DNA from: a virus
Lineage: Duplodnaviria > Caudoviricetes
Strand: one strand, 5' to 3'
DNA length: 64,000 bases
IMG/VR virus record: IMGVR_UViG_2862465376_000001
Coordinates: 1 to 64,000 of that record
The translations under genes and the position numbers were made by a program. Positions within the stretch are counted from its first letter, which is position 1. Each line of letters opens with the position of its first letter. The notes under the pieces were generated by a model that made no database searches, had not been told where the DNA came from, and saw only the letters and a list, made by a program, of their open reading frames with translations. Shown one piece after another: positions 3,251 to 41,029 of this stretch.

Positions 3251-3323
3251 AGGGTCCTCGCGCTGCTCCGGCCGCCACGGAGAGCGGGGACCCTTTCTTT
3301 CCGCCTCGACCCGCCACGAGGAG
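3251..3323 (+). promoter_or_regulatory. Leader terminator-like hairpin with GCCGCCA loop plus RBS-occluding CCGCCA hairpin
   Basis: AGGGTCC..CTCCG-GCCGCCA-CGGAG..GGACCCT then TTCTTT; CCTCG-ACCCGCCA-CGAGG at 3304-3321. Confidence 0.8.
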
Positions 3324-9682: not shown

Positions 9683-9738
9683 CGGCCGGACCGCCAACCG
9701 GCCGCCACCACATCCACCACCTCGACCGCCACGAGGAG
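9683..9738 (+). promoter_or_regulatory. Tandem CCGCCA-loop hairpins
   Basis: CGGCCGG-ACCGCCAA-CCGGCCG and CCTCG-ACCGCCA-CGAGG covering GAGGAG. Confidence 0.8.
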
Positions 9739-18192: not shown

Positions 18193-19365
18193 ATGGACAC
18201 CTCCGACCTGATGTGGGACGGCGCGACCGCCGACCTCGACGCGGAGCGGCGCGAGCTGGCCCGCACGGCCGCGCTCGCCGACACCGAGCGCCTGGTGGGC
18301 CAGTTCGTCTACCAGGCGGCCAACGACGTCGACCTCCTCAACCGGCTGGCGCTCGCCGACTCGCAGCTGCAGGCCGTGGCCAGTCTCCGGGGCTACCCGC
18401 TCGACGCGCTGACCGACGACCTGACCCGGCGCTGGCGGCTGCTGTCCACCGCGAAGAAGCAGGCCGCGCAGAAGACGGCCGCGCGGCGGACGGTGACGGC
18501 GGCTCAGGAGCGGGGCATGGACGCGGCCGTCGCGCACCTCGCGTCGCTGGCCGCCCGGGACAACCCGAGCGTGCCGATGGCCGAGTGCCTGAAGCTGGCC
18601 ACCGAAGCCGTGCGCAAGCACGCGGACGCCTACCCGCTGGCGTACGAGTCGTGGGGCGGCGCGGCCGACGGGCCGATCACCGACCGGGCCAAGCACTTCA
18701 AGCCCGGCGGGATGCCGAAGGCCCTCCCGGAGAGCGCCGGGCGTCCGGCGGCCGACCCGGGGGCCGCCGGTGGCTCCGGCACCTTCGACGAGGTCAACCG
18801 GCGCCTGGACGACCTGGAGGGCCGGACCAACCCGGCGGCCGCCACGACCACGACGGCGTCCCTGGAGCCGAGCGTGGCGGGCTTCTACCAGCGACTGAAG
18901 GACTGGTGGCGGCACGGGCCCGACGCAGCGCCGAGCACCTTCGCTCCTTCGACGCACCCGGAGCCCCCGGCGCCCTCGCACGAGCTGCTCCACGGCCTCG
19001 ACGACGCGAAGACCGAGATGGACAAGAAGTGGGACGCCAACGCGGCCTCGCCGGGCGCGTCCCCGGAGTACACCACGCAGCACGCGTCGGACGACCTGCT
19101 GCACGGCTTCGACAAGGCGAGGAGCGAGATGAGCGAGAAGTGGGACGCGAACCTGGCCGGGCCGGGCGCCTCCGAGCACTACCGGCCGCCGGTGCCGTCC
19201 GGGTTCTCCCACGCCGACACCGGCCACGGCACCGGCCAGGCGCCGCTGCCGACCGACCCGGCCGGGCACGGCTTCTCCCACGCCGAGCCCGCCCACACCT
19301 CGCGCGAGCGGCAGGACTGGAACATCCCGACCCACTTCCAGCACGGCGCGAGCCTGTTCGAGTAG
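18193..19365 (+). CDS. Putative virion head protein with internal repeats
   Basis: Duplicated LLHGxDxAxxEMxxKWDANxAxPGAS unit and GFSHA repeat. Confidence 0.75.
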   Translation: MDTSDLMWDGATADLDAERRELARTAALADTERLVGQFVYQAANDVDLLNRLALADSQLQAVASLRGYPLDALTDDLTRRWRLLSTAKKQAAQKTAARRTVTAAQERGMDAAVAHLASLAARDNPSVPMAECLKLATEAVRKHADAYPLAYESWGGAADGPITDRAKHFKPGGMPKALPESAGRPAADPGAAGGSGTFDEVNRRLDDLEGRTNPAAATTTTASLEPSVAGFYQRLKDWWRHGPDAAPSTFAPSTHPEPPAPSHELLHGLDDAKTEMDKKWDANAASPGASPEYTTQHASDDLLHGFDKARSEMSEKWDANLAGPGASEHYRPPVPSGFSHADTGHGTGQAPLPTDPAGHGFSHAEPAHTSRERQDWNIPTHFQHGASLFE

Positions 19366-21023: not shown

Positions 21024-21041
21024 GCCACCACAGGAGGACCC

Positions 21042-23198
21042 ATGGCCCAGAAGCCCCGCCCGGCGCAGCCGAAGAACTTCGATGCCGAGCAGTCGCGGAT
21101 CGACCGGCTGTTCCGCCGCTTCTCCTCCTCGCCCGGGGAGTCGGGCGAGGAAGCCGAGATGCGGAAGAACCGGCGGGTCAGCCGGAAGGTGGCGGCCGGG
21201 GGCGGCGGAGGGGTGGGCTCGAACCCGTCGGTGTCTTTTGCGACGGTTCGCCCGCGTGATCCGCTTTTTTACTGGAGACAGAACAACCTCCCGTTCCAGT
21301 TCGACGACCCGGAGCAGATGGCGAAGATGCGGGCGTACTGCCGCCTGCTGTACATCAGCCATCCGATCGTCGGCTCGTGCGTCGACATCTACTCGAAGTA
21401 CCCGCTGCTCGGGCTGAAGATGTCGTGCAAGGACGACCGGCTCACGGAGTTCTACACCGACCACTTCCTCTCGAAGGACGGCCTGGACTACCGCAAGTTC
21501 CTCATCGACCTGGGCCGGGAGTACTGGACGGTCGGCGAGGCGTGGCCGCTGGGCACCTTCAACGAGGACCTCGGCGTCTGGGACGACGAGGAGCTGCTGA
21601 ACCCCGACGACGTCGAGGTCCAGCCGTCCCCGTTCCTGCGCGAGCCCCGGTTCCTGATCCGGCTCCCGAGCACGATGCGCGAGCTGATCCGCACTCGGCA
21701 GCCCGCCTGGGAGTACGAGAAGCTCGTCCAGGCCTACCCGGAGCTGACGTACTACGCCGACGACAACGCGCGGATGCCGGTGTCGAACACCCTGCTGCGG
21801 CAGATGAAGTTCGAGGCCGACACGTTCAACAAGCGGGGCGTTCCGCTCCTGTACCGGGCGATGCGTTCACTCATGCAGGAGGAGATGCTGAACGCGGCGG
21901 TCGACTCGATCGCCGACCGCCTGTACACGCCGCTGATCCATGCCAAGCTCGGCGCGTCCGCCGCCGACCTGGGCACGCAGGTGCCGTGGATCCCGACACT
22001 CGACGACCTCGCGGACTTCGAGGAGGCCGTGGACGCGGCCCTCGCAGGTGACTTCCGGATCATCATGACCCACTTCGCGGTCGAGATGGAGTCCGTGCTG
22101 GGCAAGGAGGACATCCCCGACCTCAGCCCGGACTTCGAGCGGATCGAGGGCCGGGTCCTGCAGACGTTCGGCCTGTCCAAGACCATGCTCGCCGGTGCGT
22201 CCTCCGGTGAGACGTACGCGGCCGACGCCCTCAACCGCGACCTCGTCACGCAGATGCTGACGAACTACCAGGAGATGATCTCTGCTCACTACCGGGAGCG
22301 GGCGCTGGTCGTCGCCGAGGCGCAGGAGCACTTCGACTACGAGGAGCGCGGCGGCAAGCGGTACGTGAAGATGGAGGAGGTCTACGAGATAGACGAAGAG
22401 TCCGGTGAGGGCCGGATCGTCGAGCAGCCCAAGCTCCTCATCCCGGACCTGAAATTCCGGACGATGTCGCTGCAGGACGAGGCGGCGCAGAACGAGTTCT
22501 TCGAGGCCCTGCGCGAGGCCGGGGTGCCGATCTCGATGAAGACGCGCCTGCACAACGTGGCGATCGACTTCGACGACGAGATCGAGAAGTCCCGCGAGGA
22601 GGCCGTCGAGCTGGCGGTCCAGGAGCAGGAGACCCGCAAGGCCATCTACGTCGCCCTCAGGGACAAGGGTCTGCCGATCCCGGACGACCTGAAGAAGGAC
22701 TTCGAGGCGCGCGCGCTGCCGGAGGCCCAGGACCCGAACCAGGTGCCGACCGCGCCGCTGCGGATCCCGCTGCTGGGCATGGACCCGGTCACCTCCCAGC
22801 CGACGCTCGCGCCGACCATGCAGGACCTGCAGAGCACCCCGGCCAACGGCGGCGTCGTCGAGCCGGGCAGCGTGCCGGAGCCGGTCGACGCCGACGGCCA
22901 GCGCCCGCCGGAGTCGGACGAGCAGCGCGAGGACATGCCCAAGCAGTCCTCGCTGTCGCCGTACGCGCAGCGGCCCGCGCCGGACGAGCCGACGGGCCTG
23001 TTCCAGCGGCACGAGCGGATCCGGTCGCTGGCCAACGCGCACAAGCCCAAGGTCCTGGTGCCCGTGGCCGAGGAGGACGCGGAGATCCCGGAGGCGATCC
23101 AGCGCAAGGAGGCCGTCGGCCTCTACCAGGGGCCCCGGCACCTGGGCATGCGCCGCCACCTTCAGGAGGAAGAGATCAACGAGGAGCTGCAGGTATGA
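21042..23198 (+). CDS. Portal protein
   Basis: Helical protein with HPIVGSCVDIYSKYPL, RGVPLLYRAM, RVLQTFGL segments typical of portals; head-module position. Confidence 0.8.
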   Translation: MAQKPRPAQPKNFDAEQSRIDRLFRRFSSSPGESGEEAEMRKNRRVSRKVAAGGGGGVGSNPSVSFATVRPRDPLFYWRQNNLPFQFDDPEQMAKMRAYCRLLYISHPIVGSCVDIYSKYPLLGLKMSCKDDRLTEFYTDHFLSKDGLDYRKFLIDLGREYWTVGEAWPLGTFNEDLGVWDDEELLNPDDVEVQPSPFLREPRFLIRLPSTMRELIRTRQPAWEYEKLVQAYPELTYYADDNARMPVSNTLLRQMKFEADTFNKRGVPLLYRAMRSLMQEEMLNAAVDSIADRLYTPLIHAKLGASAADLGTQVPWIPTLDDLADFEEAVDAALAGDFRIIMTHFAVEMESVLGKEDIPDLSPDFERIEGRVLQTFGLSKTMLAGASSGETYAADALNRDLVTQMLTNYQEMISAHYRERALVVAEAQEHFDYEERGGKRYVKMEEVYEIDEESGEGRIVEQPKLLIPDLKFRTMSLQDEAAQNEFFEALREAGVPISMKTRLHNVAIDFDDEIEKSREEAVELAVQEQETRKAIYVALRDKGLPIPDDLKKDFEARALPEAQDPNQVPTAPLRIPLLGMDPVTSQPTLAPTMQDLQSTPANGGVVEPGSVPEPVDADGQRPPESDEQREDMPKQSSLSPYAQRPAPDEPTGLFQRHERIRSLANAHKPKVLVPVAEEDAEIPEAIQRKEAVGLYQGPRHLGMRRHLQEEEINEELQV

Positions 23199-38512: not shown

Positions 38513-38548
38513 CTGTCCCACTACCAGTTGCCCGCTCCTAGGGGGTGA
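38513..38548 (+). promoter_or_regulatory. Late-type bipartite promoter motif
   Basis: CTGTC-N21-TAGGGGGTGA. Confidence 0.7.
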
Positions 38549-38602: not shown

Positions 38603-39115
38603 ATGATCCGCGTGCGGGCCAACCTGGCGCACATCAAGAGGACCCTCCGTCCTCTCTACGCATGGACTCAGGCGACGCCCAAGTCCGTGTTCCTCGACCC
38701 GTCCTGGAACCGCAGCGTCCCGATCTACCCGGGCATGGTCCTCGCCCGTACCAGCGGCGAGCTGGTCACCCTCATCGGCCCCAACCAGGTCCCCTACGGC
38801 TTCGCGGCCGACTACGTCGGCGGCGACGGCTTCGACCCGCTCCTCGACGTCGGCGTCAACGCCACCGCCGTCTGGGTCCCCGGCGCCGACGCCGAGTTCG
38901 AGGTCCTCGCCCCCGCCTTCGACGACACCCAGGCCTGGGTCGACCCGGGCGACGGCACCGAGAAGCTCGTCTACGCAATCACCGCCGGAACCGGCCGGGG
39001 CAAGCTCGCCCTCGCCACCAACGGCTCCGTCGCCACCGCCATCTCCACCCAGGCTGTCGGCCGCCTGCTCAAGGTCAACAGCGCTTCCAAGATCACCGTC
39101 GGCGGCCTGCGCTAA
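38603..39115 (+). CDS. Capsid decoration/cement protein
   Basis: Beta-rich 170 aa directly upstream of the major capsid gene. Confidence 0.65.
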   Translation: MIRVRANLAHIKRTLRPLYAWTQATPKSVFLDPSWNRSVPIYPGMVLARTSGELVTLIGPNQVPYGFAADYVGGDGFDPLLDVGVNATAVWVPGADAEFEVLAPAFDDTQAWVDPGDGTEKLVYAITAGTGRGKLALATNGSVATAISTQAVGRLLKVNSASKITVGGLR

Positions 39116-39154: not shown

Positions 39155-40144
39155 ATGACCGCAACGCTCACCACCGGGCACAAGGGCGGCGTCACCGCGA
39201 AGAAGTCGGACGACTACGTCTCCGAGATCCTCGCCCGCCGCGAGGCCCGTGGCGGCCAGCCGCTGACCTTCGAAGCCAAGCAGCAGCGCCTCCAGGCCGT
39301 CGCCTCCGACCAGGTCAACGGCATCAAGCGCCTCGGCGTCGGCATGATCGGCCCGATCCAGCTGAAGCTGCGCTACCAGGGCATCACCCGCAACGTCCTC
39401 GTCGAGGACCCCTGCACCCCCGGCACGCCGGTCGAGTACGACGTCTGGGACGACCTCGGACAGGCGTACATCATGTCCGGGACCGACGGCGAGGTCCGCA
39501 TCACCCCCTTCGAGGGCAAGCGGATCCAGGTGCGGTTCTTCCGCATCGCCTCCCGCCCGGCCATCCGCAAGGAAGACTTGCTCTACCTGCGGATCAACGC
39601 GGTCGAGCAGGCCCAGGACGAGACCAAGCAGGCCATCCTCAAGCAGGAGGACTCCCGCCTCGTCACCATCCTGCAGGCCGCGATCTCCGACTACGCGGGC
39701 CGCGCCGACCACACGGTCACCCCGAACCACGTGATCACGGAAGCGAGCGGCTACCTCACCCCGGGCTCGCTCTACAGCGCGGTCTCCATGACCGACATGC
39801 ACGAGCTGCAGTCCAGCCGGATCCTCATCAACCCGATGGACTACCGGGACATGTACAGGTGGGACATCAACCAAACCGGTTGGGCGTTCAAGGACCGCGT
39901 CGTCGCCGGTGAGACCATCACCAGCTTCGGCGAGTTCCAGCTGCAGCGCTCCATCGTCATCCCGCAGGGCCAGACCTTCCTGACGCCGGACCCGCAGTTC
40001 CTCGGCGTCTTCCCCGTCCTGTACAGCCTCGACGTGGAAGAGAACCACCGCGTCGAGAGCTTCTGGAAGGGCTGGGTCTTCGACGAGATGATCAGCATGC
40101 TGATCCTCAACCCGCGTGGGCTCGCACGGATCGACAAGTCGTAG
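39155..40144 (+). CDS. Major capsid protein (HK97 fold)
   Basis: 329 aa, strong codon bias, AILKQEDSRLV spine helix, C-terminal MLILNPRGLARI. Confidence 0.85.
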   Translation: MTATLTTGHKGGVTAKKSDDYVSEILARREARGGQPLTFEAKQQRLQAVASDQVNGIKRLGVGMIGPIQLKLRYQGITRNVLVEDPCTPGTPVEYDVWDDLGQAYIMSGTDGEVRITPFEGKRIQVRFFRIASRPAIRKEDLLYLRINAVEQAQDETKQAILKQEDSRLVTILQAAISDYAGRADHTVTPNHVITEASGYLTPGSLYSAVSMTDMHELQSSRILINPMDYRDMYRWDINQTGWAFKDRVVAGETITSFGEFQLQRSIVIPQGQTFLTPDPQFLGVFPVLYSLDVEENHRVESFWKGWVFDEMISMLILNPRGLARIDKS

Positions 40145-40189: not shown

Positions 40190-40226
40190 CGAAGGCCCTC
40201 CCCATGTCGTCTGGGGAGGGCCTTCG
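40190..40226 (+). terminator. Terminator hairpin after capsid gene
   Basis: CGAAGGCCCTCCCCA / TGGGGAGGGCCTTCG. Confidence 0.75.
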
Positions 40227-40229
40227 CGC

Positions 40230-40440
40230 TGCCCACGCTTCGGGAACTACCGCCAGGCGGCTCATGGCCTCGCTCGGTCGCGTGGGCTGGCGACCGGGGC
40301 CTGCGTGAGCCCTCGCCCCCGAAGGGGAACGAGGGTCACTGCCGCTGGCGTTCTCGGGTCATCTTGGCGGGTGACATATTCTCACCTTGGCAGAGTCTCA
40401 GCCCGGTGTGAAGTCGGTTCGGTGATTTTCCGGGTGCGGA
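40230..40440. ncRNA. Candidate structured RNA with several TGGC(G)/(C)GCCA motifs
   Basis: Several hairpins, e.g. GTCATC-TTGGCG-GGTGAC; no credible ORF; strand uncertain. Confidence 0.35.
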
Positions 40441-40461: not shown

Positions 40462-40496
40462 CTGTCCCCTGTCCCCACCCCGCCTGTAGGGGGTGA
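40462..40496 (+). promoter_or_regulatory. Late-type bipartite promoter motif with no downstream ORF
   Basis: CTGTC-N20-TAGGGGGTGA. Confidence 0.7.
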
Positions 40497-40577
40497 GGGT
40501 TTGTGGTGGGCCCTCGTGCGGCTCCGTTCTCCGGCCGCCAGCTCGACCCCCGGGTTCCCCTTCCCGGGGGTCGAGTG
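40495..40577 (+). ncRNA. Candidate ~80-nt late small RNA
   Basis: Own late promoter, 5' hairpin GAGGGTT-TGTGGTG-GGCCCTC, terminal 14-bp hairpin 40541-40576, next promoter starts at 40578. Confidence 0.55.
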
Positions 40578-40612
40578 CTGTCTGGGGTGCGCCTGGCCTC
40601 CTCAAGGGGTGA
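40578..40612 (+). promoter_or_regulatory. Late-type bipartite promoter motif
   Basis: CTGTC-N20-CAAGGGGTGA. Confidence 0.8.
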
Positions 40613-40645
40613 CGGAAGCTCCGTCCCCCTTTCTGAGGAGGCATC

Positions 40646-41029
40646 ATGCCGGTCCAGCAGCTCCAGGTTTCCAACCCGTCGAGCGGTGTCGTGGTCGTCA
40701 CTCCGGACGCCGACCGTCCGAAGTCGTACCTGCGCTTCGAGGCGAAGGGCGACGCGACGGGCGAGGACGTCAAGATCATCTCCCGCGAGACCGCGTTCCA
40801 GGCTCCGCTGGTCAAGGCGGTCAAGCGCGGCGTGCTGGTGATCGACGACGACATCTCGGGCGACGAGGAGCTGCAGCGCGTTCTGGGGACCGTGCAGAAG
40901 CGGCAGCCGGTCGGCGAGAAGCCGCTGACGGCGGTGCGGGTGGACTACGTGTACGACGAGGAGTCGAACTCCTACAACAAGGTGGACCGCGACGTGCGCG
41001 TGGTCATCGACCCGCTGCAGAAGGGCTGA
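40646..41029 (+). CDS. Hypothetical virion-associated protein
   Basis: GAGGAGG RBS, follows capsid gene. Confidence 0.8.
   Translation: MPVQQLQVSNPSSGVVVVTPDADRPKSYLRFEAKGDATGEDVKIISRETAFQAPLVKAVKRGVLVIDDDISGDEELQRVLGTVQKRQPVGEKPLTAVRVDYVYDEESNSYNKVDRDVRVVIDPLQKG

Follow-up and report, generated by a model that had tools for sequence, protein, structure and literature searches.

Exposed RNA loops that pair in trans with short repeated leader sites are known from the c4 antisense RNA of P1/P7 and the CI RNA of P4, where the pairing blocks the ribosome-binding site or transcription. Both RNAs are processed from the transcripts they control, and they pair with one to three sites by perfect Watson-Crick base pairing. 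In T4, many early mRNAs are shut off at or beside their Shine-Dalgarno (SD) sequences by late or middle proteins, RegA and RegB. Lambdoid phages produce a short late transcript between PR' and tR' (the lambda '6S' RNA; StxS in Stx phages), and StxS has gained the function of a trans-acting sRNA (PMC7547250). In actinophages, the SAS/ESAS elements of cluster K mycobacteriophages are a short conserved motif dispersed 5′ of many starts, with no known trans factor (PMC3203893).

The locus described here lies in 64,000 nt of phage DNA (positions 1 to 64,000 of IMG/VR record IMGVR_UViG_2862465376_000001; the whole stretch is called the window) and shares features with several of these systems. As in the PR'-tR' RNAs, a phage late promoter is followed by an ORF-less RNA of 70-190 nt that ends at a strong hairpin upstream of late genes. 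Unlike them, it has a second promoter right after the hairpin, the late genes would need no antitermination, the actinomycete host has no Hfq, and there is no sequence or Rfam relationship. The two adjacent stem-loops just 3′ of the promoter and 5′ of terminators recall HK022 put in their layout. The comparison with T4 RegA/RegB is a functional analogy only, the candidate effector here being an RNA and not a protein. The actinobacterial 6C/B11 sRNA (RF01066) is a small multi-hairpin RNA whose C-rich loops pair with G-rich or SD-like sequences in Hfq-less hosts. Loop 2 and the terminator loop of our RNA are likewise C/U-rich, but its key conserved loop is G/U-rich, not C-rich, and the covariance model of 6C gave no match even at E = 10.

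The phage, its host and its relatives

The window belongs to a Bxz1-like myophage or phage-plasmid of Streptomyces of ~155 kb. Its G+C content is 69% and nearly all genes are on the + strand. Among sequenced phages, cluster C (Bxz1/Myrna-like) mycobacteriophages and myophages of Rhodococcus and Gordonia come nearest, with capsid proteins only 59% identical to the major capsid protein encoded in the window; by this measure the lineage is one without a closer sequenced isolate. A megablast search with 4 kb against GenBank phages gave no match. IMG/VR holds about 240 relatives. One of them (L002, genome G001), a 156-kb contig, has 99.7% capsid identity, and a clade (L003-L020) has 89-95%.

A genome scan found the unit described below on phage-sized contigs in three Streptomyces assemblies, of 151 kb (in a record labelled plasmid), 155.7 kb and 152.5 kb, and the host is therefore taken to be Streptomyces. 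In these isolate assemblies whole relatives stand as separate contigs (L165 = G006:C2, L171 = G007:C20 and L181 = G008:C16). Separate contigs of 151-156 kb, one of them deposited as a plasmid, suggest a phage-plasmid or carrier state, and an extrachromosomal lifestyle of these phages is likely. No credible tRNAs were found to be carried by them. We also noticed a degenerate type I-E CRISPR array with a 61-bp period and at least 17 repeats on a contig of Streptomyces griseorubiginosus DSM 40469. One of its spacers (32 nt, L197:383-414) corresponds to hairpin 1 plus the beginning of hairpin 2 in the RNA described below and has two mismatches to the L014-type sequence. Such a spacer is evidence from nature that Streptomyces meets these phages, and the protospacer is the invariant RNA gene.

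A unit without an open reading frame between two late-promoter motifs

The major capsid protein gene (39155-40144, + strand; phrog_2522, E = 7e-105) follows the cement protein gene (38603-39115) and is the upstream neighbour of the unit. On its 3′ side are two conserved GC hairpins on the + strand (40191-40225 and 40305-40339), whose stems are kept with compensatory changes in the alignment. They probably terminate capsid transcription, and a promoter of its own would therefore be needed for expression of the RNA. Such a promoter, P1, is suggested by a late-promoter-type motif at 40462-40496 (+), CTGTC-N20-TAGGGGGTGA, with CTGTC at 40462-40466 and TAGGGGGTGA at 40487-40496. The general pattern CTGTC-N20-24-GGGGTGA would be expected 0.14 times in the window and was found 9 times, always on the + strand. 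In the relatives both blocks of P1 are kept and the spacer has diverged completely, a pattern from which we infer promoter activity. P1 is of the same TAGGGGG variant as the copy 5′ of the cement and capsid genes (38513-38548), which suggests high late expression of the RNA.

The next copy of the motif, P2 (40578-40612, +), starts 116 nt after the first, overlaps the tail of the terminal hairpin and is kept in all relatives, including the distant phage G003. The earlier note had placed late promoter motifs at both sites, the second one for the next gene, and we recovered them there. This next gene (40646-41029, +; 127 aa) lies directly 3′ of the RNA and P2 in every relative and has no Pfam, PHROG or Atlas lead. 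In the window (40613-40630) and in relatives, a small hairpin with a variable loop, ACGG-loop-CCGU, would stand at the start of the P2 mRNA; late transcripts may share it as a stabiliser of their 5′ ends.

The interval between the promoters comprises ~85 nt without an ORF, which form, on the + strand, two hairpins of 21 nt and a GC hairpin of 13 bp. In 200 shuffles no fold was as good as the predicted one, which has -52.8 kcal/mol (z = -4.1). Hairpin 1 (40495-40515, +) consists of the stem GAGGG/CCCUC closing an 11-nt loop, UUUGUGGUGGG (40500-40510), in which UUU and GGG can form three weak U-G pairs atop the stem, on the + strand only. In hairpin 2 (40518-40538, +) the stem GCGGCU/GGCCGC closes the CU-rich loop GUUCUCC (40526-40532), which resembles an anti-SD sequence. 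The earlier note had described an ORF-less RNA with the hairpin GAGGGTT-TGTGGTG-GGCCCTC, a second stem and an internal GCCGCCA, and all of these are present, the last at 40534-40540. No credible ORF was found in the RNA, and a 39-codon frame (40493-40612) is broken in relatives by indels of 1-3 nt.

The terminal hairpin (40542-40575, +; arms 40542-40554 and 40563-40575, loop UUCCCCUU) is present as previously described, but with 13 bp instead of the 14 bp claimed. It is followed by the tail UGCUGUCU, which is not a canonical U-tract, and for this reason the terminator scan made no call: the GC stem is present, but the unit has no canonical intrinsic terminator (GC stem plus U-tract). U-poor terminators are common in actinomycetes. 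The hairpin probably acts as an intrinsic terminator of non-canonical type or stabilises the 3′ end.

The order of promoter, two adjacent 5′ hairpins, strong hairpin and late genes would also suit a cis-acting antitermination or attenuation leader of the HK022 put, lambda nut or PR'-tR' kind, with the short RNA as a by-product and the short PR'-tR' transcript of lambdoid phages as a precedent (PMC7547250). The unit always stands directly 5′ of the same gene, and terminator-like hairpins abutting the next promoter separate the late units. In this explanation the P1 RNA would modify the polymerase, alone or with a phage factor, and bring about read-through of 40542-40575 and of later terminators in the virion module. 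However, a full P2 begins 2 nt past the terminal hairpin and is followed by other late promoters at intervals of 1.5-5 kb, so that the downstream genes are independent of read-through. Moreover, the element has no clear promoter on its 5′ side in G003 and no similarity to any curated RNA family. We regard a cis-acting leader of this kind as rather improbable.

The neighbourhood of the capsid gene, the capsid-type promoter and the position of the element directly after the capsid stop codon in G003 could also speak for a structural virion or DNA-packaging RNA similar to the phi29 pRNA. That RNA belongs to a podovirus, has 120-174 nt and relies on loop-loop complementarity. Here the phage is a large terminase-type myovirus, with a myovirus-type capsid relative, and the RNA, with ~85 nt, is half the pRNA size. 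From the fold and inspection of the sequence, its loops have no mutual Watson-Crick complementarity of 4 nt by which a ring could form, and Rfam gave no match to it. A packaging role is thus very unlikely. A search of the window against Rfam recovered no family at gathering score, and at E <= 10 the best hit was a 19.6-bit match to the terminator-like part of ftsZ-DE. ARAGORN found neither a tRNA nor a tmRNA.

The slot between the capsid gene and the RNA is an insertion hot spot. The capsid gene and the next gene lie 482-511 nt apart in ten relatives and ~1.9-2.4 kb apart in five others, which have an insertion. The loci at which the hot spot was noticed are L007:5189-6169, L017:5126-6859 and, 3′ of the capsid gene, L040 and L023. 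Some clade members carry there a protein with several tandem HTH domains. In G009 and G010 the slot contains a small HTH gene on the minus strand and also a different ORF-less promoter-to-terminator unit, and in L042, a relative of lower GC, an apparent tRNA gene, judged by eye. In the window, the slot holds a near-invariant block at 40355-40390, UCUUGGCGG-GGTGACATATTCTCACC, with an inverted repeat at 40370-40386. Its + strand contains a perfect complement of CCGCCA(AG). Its - strand offers a -10-like box, GAGAAT, followed by CCCGCCAAG and then by the 40339-40305 hairpin; a second, divergent small RNA is possible at this place.

Conservation of the RNA

The unit is present in about 20 relatives, in one copy per genome. 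Fifteen distinct sequences agree in all 45 nt of hairpins 1 and 2, with diverged promoter spacer, linkers and flanks. Despite this invariant core, the protein encoded downstream is only 46-69% identical among the relatives, with the exception of the closest one (90%). A single change was seen in hairpin 2 within the clade, a C-to-U that converts a C-G pair to U-G and keeps the pairing; on covariation, helix 2 is uninformative. Both linkers and the last loop carry indels of 1-3 nt, so that no reading frame can be conserved and coding is excluded. The terminal helix behaves differently from the two 5′ hairpins: four of its pairs show compensatory changes, ~97-98.8% of the alignment cells are paired, and none of 500 shuffles reached its covariation score. 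The strand is fixed by the three U-G pairs of helix 1 and the C-G to U-G change in helix 2, which are meaningful only in an RNA of the + strand.

A distant homologue was recovered with a covariance model in the 155-kb phage G003 (capsid identity 81%; E = 1.6e-8). The 11-nt loop is kept there and the closing pair of helix 1 is flipped from G-C to C-G; the terminator is different. In this search of 1.1 Mb of relatives G003 held the only true homologue, and the other matches were generic 'terminator + UGCUGUC' junctions. A scan of viral contigs with the loop pattern returned only members of the same clade, G003, and chance or coding matches. The earlier note had proposed looking for the loop in related genomes, and its invariance in the clade together with its retention in G003 bears out that expectation. 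Likewise, the view that P1 serves only an ORF-less RNA agrees with what we see, an independent unit of the + strand that runs from promoter to hairpin and is under very strong purifying selection.

An invariant sequence with 5-bp inverted repeats could instead act as DNA, as an operator, iteron or recombination site with spacers of 11 bp to which a DNA-binding protein of the phage would bind, the RNA fold being incidental. Each hairpin measures 21 bp and has inverted arms of 5 bp, the sequence is invariant throughout, the capsid-unit slot repeatedly gains genes for HTH proteins in relatives, and TGGCGG/CCGCCA repeats are clustered in non-coding DNA. Against this stand the strand-specific U-G pairs of both helices, the framing of the unit by a promoter and a covarying terminator-like hairpin, and the presence of only one copy per genome. 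A site acting at the DNA level therefore appears quite unlikely to us. The sequence from 40495 to 40584 (+) is, with high probability, a genuine RNA gene of a new family. Its predicted product, an RNA of 80-90 nt, has two 5′ hairpins of invariant sequence and, at the 3′ end, a hairpin rich in GC. The unit is best explained as an autonomous promoter-sRNA-terminator gene that has been inserted 3′ of the capsid gene, ahead of the next virion gene. We read it as an sRNA gene whose transcription we infer to be late and probably of high level.

The stems and the loops of hairpins 1 and 2 are both invariant and the terminator stem covaries freely, which would also be expected if the sRNA bound a protein or RNA polymerase that recognises the hairpins by shape and sequence. 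The partner would be a conserved factor of the host or the phage, such as RNA polymerase itself, a ribosomal or RNA-binding protein, or a factor of defence or counter-defence, and late in infection the RNA would act as its sponge, as a cofactor or as a modulator. G003 has kept the loop of hairpin 1 unaltered despite the different leader motif of that phage (see below), which fits this explanation; hairpin 2, on the other hand, is not conserved in G003, and the downstream gene with its conserved synteny belongs to no recognisable RNA-binding family. We found no host copy, mimic or target for hairpin 2 or for the conserved loop: a search of four Streptomyces genomes for hairpin 2 with up to three mismatches (<=3) recovered only phage contigs and chance-level matches, and neither GUGGUGG nor GUUCUCC occurs in 16S rRNA. 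A candidate pairing with tRNA 3′ ends (UGGUGGGCCCU against AGGGCCCACCA-3′) was rejected, as its counts in the four host genomes equalled those of the reversed control and the phages themselves have no credible tRNAs.

The CCGCCA motif in leaders

CCGCCA is present in 28-33 of the ~135-140 leaders of G001 and of G002, against 6.5-7.7 expected. In G006p and G008p the top 7-mer of the leaders is CCCGCCA, and GGAGAAC is among the top 10 in G008p. The pattern CCRCCACR is 4-5 fold enriched in the leaders of the four complete clade genomes that bear the sRNA (16/3.7, 18/3.9, 16/2.9 and 14/3.0, observed/expected), and no such enrichment was found in four relatives without the sRNA. The over-representation is specific to 5′ leaders; in the window taken as a whole, the 9-mer CCCGCCACG is not over-represented.

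Many of the copies are displayed in hairpins of the type CUCG-ACCCGCCA-CGAG|GAG, in which the stems covary and the loop is invariant. The family as a whole has the loop (A)CC(C)GCCA(A) and freely covarying stems of 4-7 bp, and the 3′ arm often includes the SD. Examples are found at 699-709, 3310-3320 and 9726-9735 in the window and genome-wide in G001, G002, G006p and G008p. Stems of at least 4 bp accompany 44-50% of the leader copies (in four of five genomes) versus 19-26% of copies elsewhere. The cluster K SAS is an actinophage analogue of the candidate target, the leader motif. SAS, however, reads GGGATAGGAGCCC and includes the SD, whereas here (A)CC(C)GCCA is displayed in a loop on variable stems. 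The motifs here also come in clade-specific variants. The leaders of G003 have CCUGCCA instead and show no enrichment; start-associated motifs of the related clades are CCUGCCAA in G003 and GACUCC-N2-AGGAGG plus GCCAGAGA in G009 and G010.

Two or three close TGGCGG repeats were noticed in apparently non-coding DNA of G006p (80354-80381 and 120635-120655) and G008p (18240-18466), so the CCGCCA/TGGCGG word may also be a binding site at the DNA level. A perfect complement of the G003 leader motif at G003:656 was considered as an antisense RNA and rejected, since it is a leader on the minus strand.

Possible pairing between the sRNA loops and the leaders

The earlier note had proposed that UGUGGUGGG (40502-40510) pairs with the leader sequence CCCGCCACG. 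This pairing is possible and extends to 11 bp, as each of the 11 nt of the leader element CCCGCCACGAG finds a possible partner in loop 1, three of the pairs being G-U. With the leaders at 699-709 and 3310-3320 the 11-bp duplex has a loop-only energy of -18.1 kcal/mol. Loop-only values were used for the duplex energies; duplexfold with the full-length sRNA and leaders was uninformative because intramolecular structure is ignored. Further along in the same leaders stands GGAGAAC, to which loop 2 (GUUCUCC) is exactly complementary. In a blind scan covering every 7-mer of the sRNA, both loops ranked first for complements enriched in leaders (in G001, G002 and the window).

The controls showed that G/U-rich loops in general pair with these C-rich leaders. 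The score of the best window was reached in 5-36% of trials with dinucleotide shuffles of the 47-nt core, and that of both windows in 0.3-20%; permutations of the G6U5 loop were as good in 1-39%. In G003 the pairing statistics are at chance level with the loop kept, and G010 has CCGCCA(GAGA) leaders (20 versus 4.2 expected) yet lacks the sRNA. Pairing of CCGCCA with loop 1 needs a central G-U. Perfect UGGCGG complements are conserved at 40364-40369, 130 nt upstream, and in another intergenic region (G001, G002 and G008p). Furthermore, the two loops are in the wrong order for one continuous duplex on adjacent sites. The earlier idea of trans-acting loop-loop feedback on the CCGCCA leaders is thus possible: the 11-bp complementarity and the display of the motif in loops speak for it, and the comparison with shuffled cores and permuted loops, together with G010 and G003, speaks against it. 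The decoy idea, by which the RNA would act through its own GCCGCCA, fails because this word is not conserved and varies to CCGCTG, CCGCCG or CCGCCC in relatives. In comparison with c4 and CI, the candidate sites form a dispersed regulon of dozens of leaders, G-U wobbles are needed for the pairing, and controls equal it in the proportion given above.

A separate match was noticed in the window at 21025-21034, where CCACCACAGG is complementary to UGUGGUGG of the sRNA loop over 8 bp, all of them Watson-Crick pairs. It abuts the SD of a 718-aa late gene at 21042. G001, G002 and G006p share the sequence, G008p has it with one base changed, and G003 lacks it.

Proposed function

A late sRNA gene acting by base pairing against leaders is the single most likely, if weakly supported, reading, and we put it forward tentatively. 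The sRNA would be a trans base-pairing riboregulator. Its breathing 11-nt G/U loop would dock on loop-displayed (C)CCGCCAC(GAG) or CCACCACA in 5′ leaders of the phage, and its CU-rich loop 2 on GGAGAAC SD sequences. Both dockings would occlude ribosome binding on a set of early or middle mRNAs once late transcription starts. The wider version, in which one abundant 85-nt RNA timed with the capsid shuts off an early/middle regulon through (A)CCCGCCA(CGAG) and GGAGAAC in an Hfq-less host, is more doubtful. The leader-pairing statistics, being no better than the controls, also favour the binding of a protein or RNA polymerase. We rank this second, as a possible but doubtful explanation, and the cis-acting antitermination leader third.

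Significance

Very few phage regulatory RNAs are known outside the temperate phages of enterobacteria, and we found none described for an actinophage in the literature searched. Here a cleanly delimited and strongly constrained RNA gene was found in an uncultivated lineage of large Streptomyces phage-plasmids, and it accompanies a dispersed regulon of leader hairpins. The question is experimentally accessible, as there are three Streptomyces isolates whose assemblies carry such a contig. Should the sRNA and the leaders prove unconnected, a core of 45 invariant nt would still indicate that the RNA has a specific partner, either a protein or RNA polymerase. If they are linked, these phages would possess an RNA-based temporal switch acting on dozens of mRNAs.
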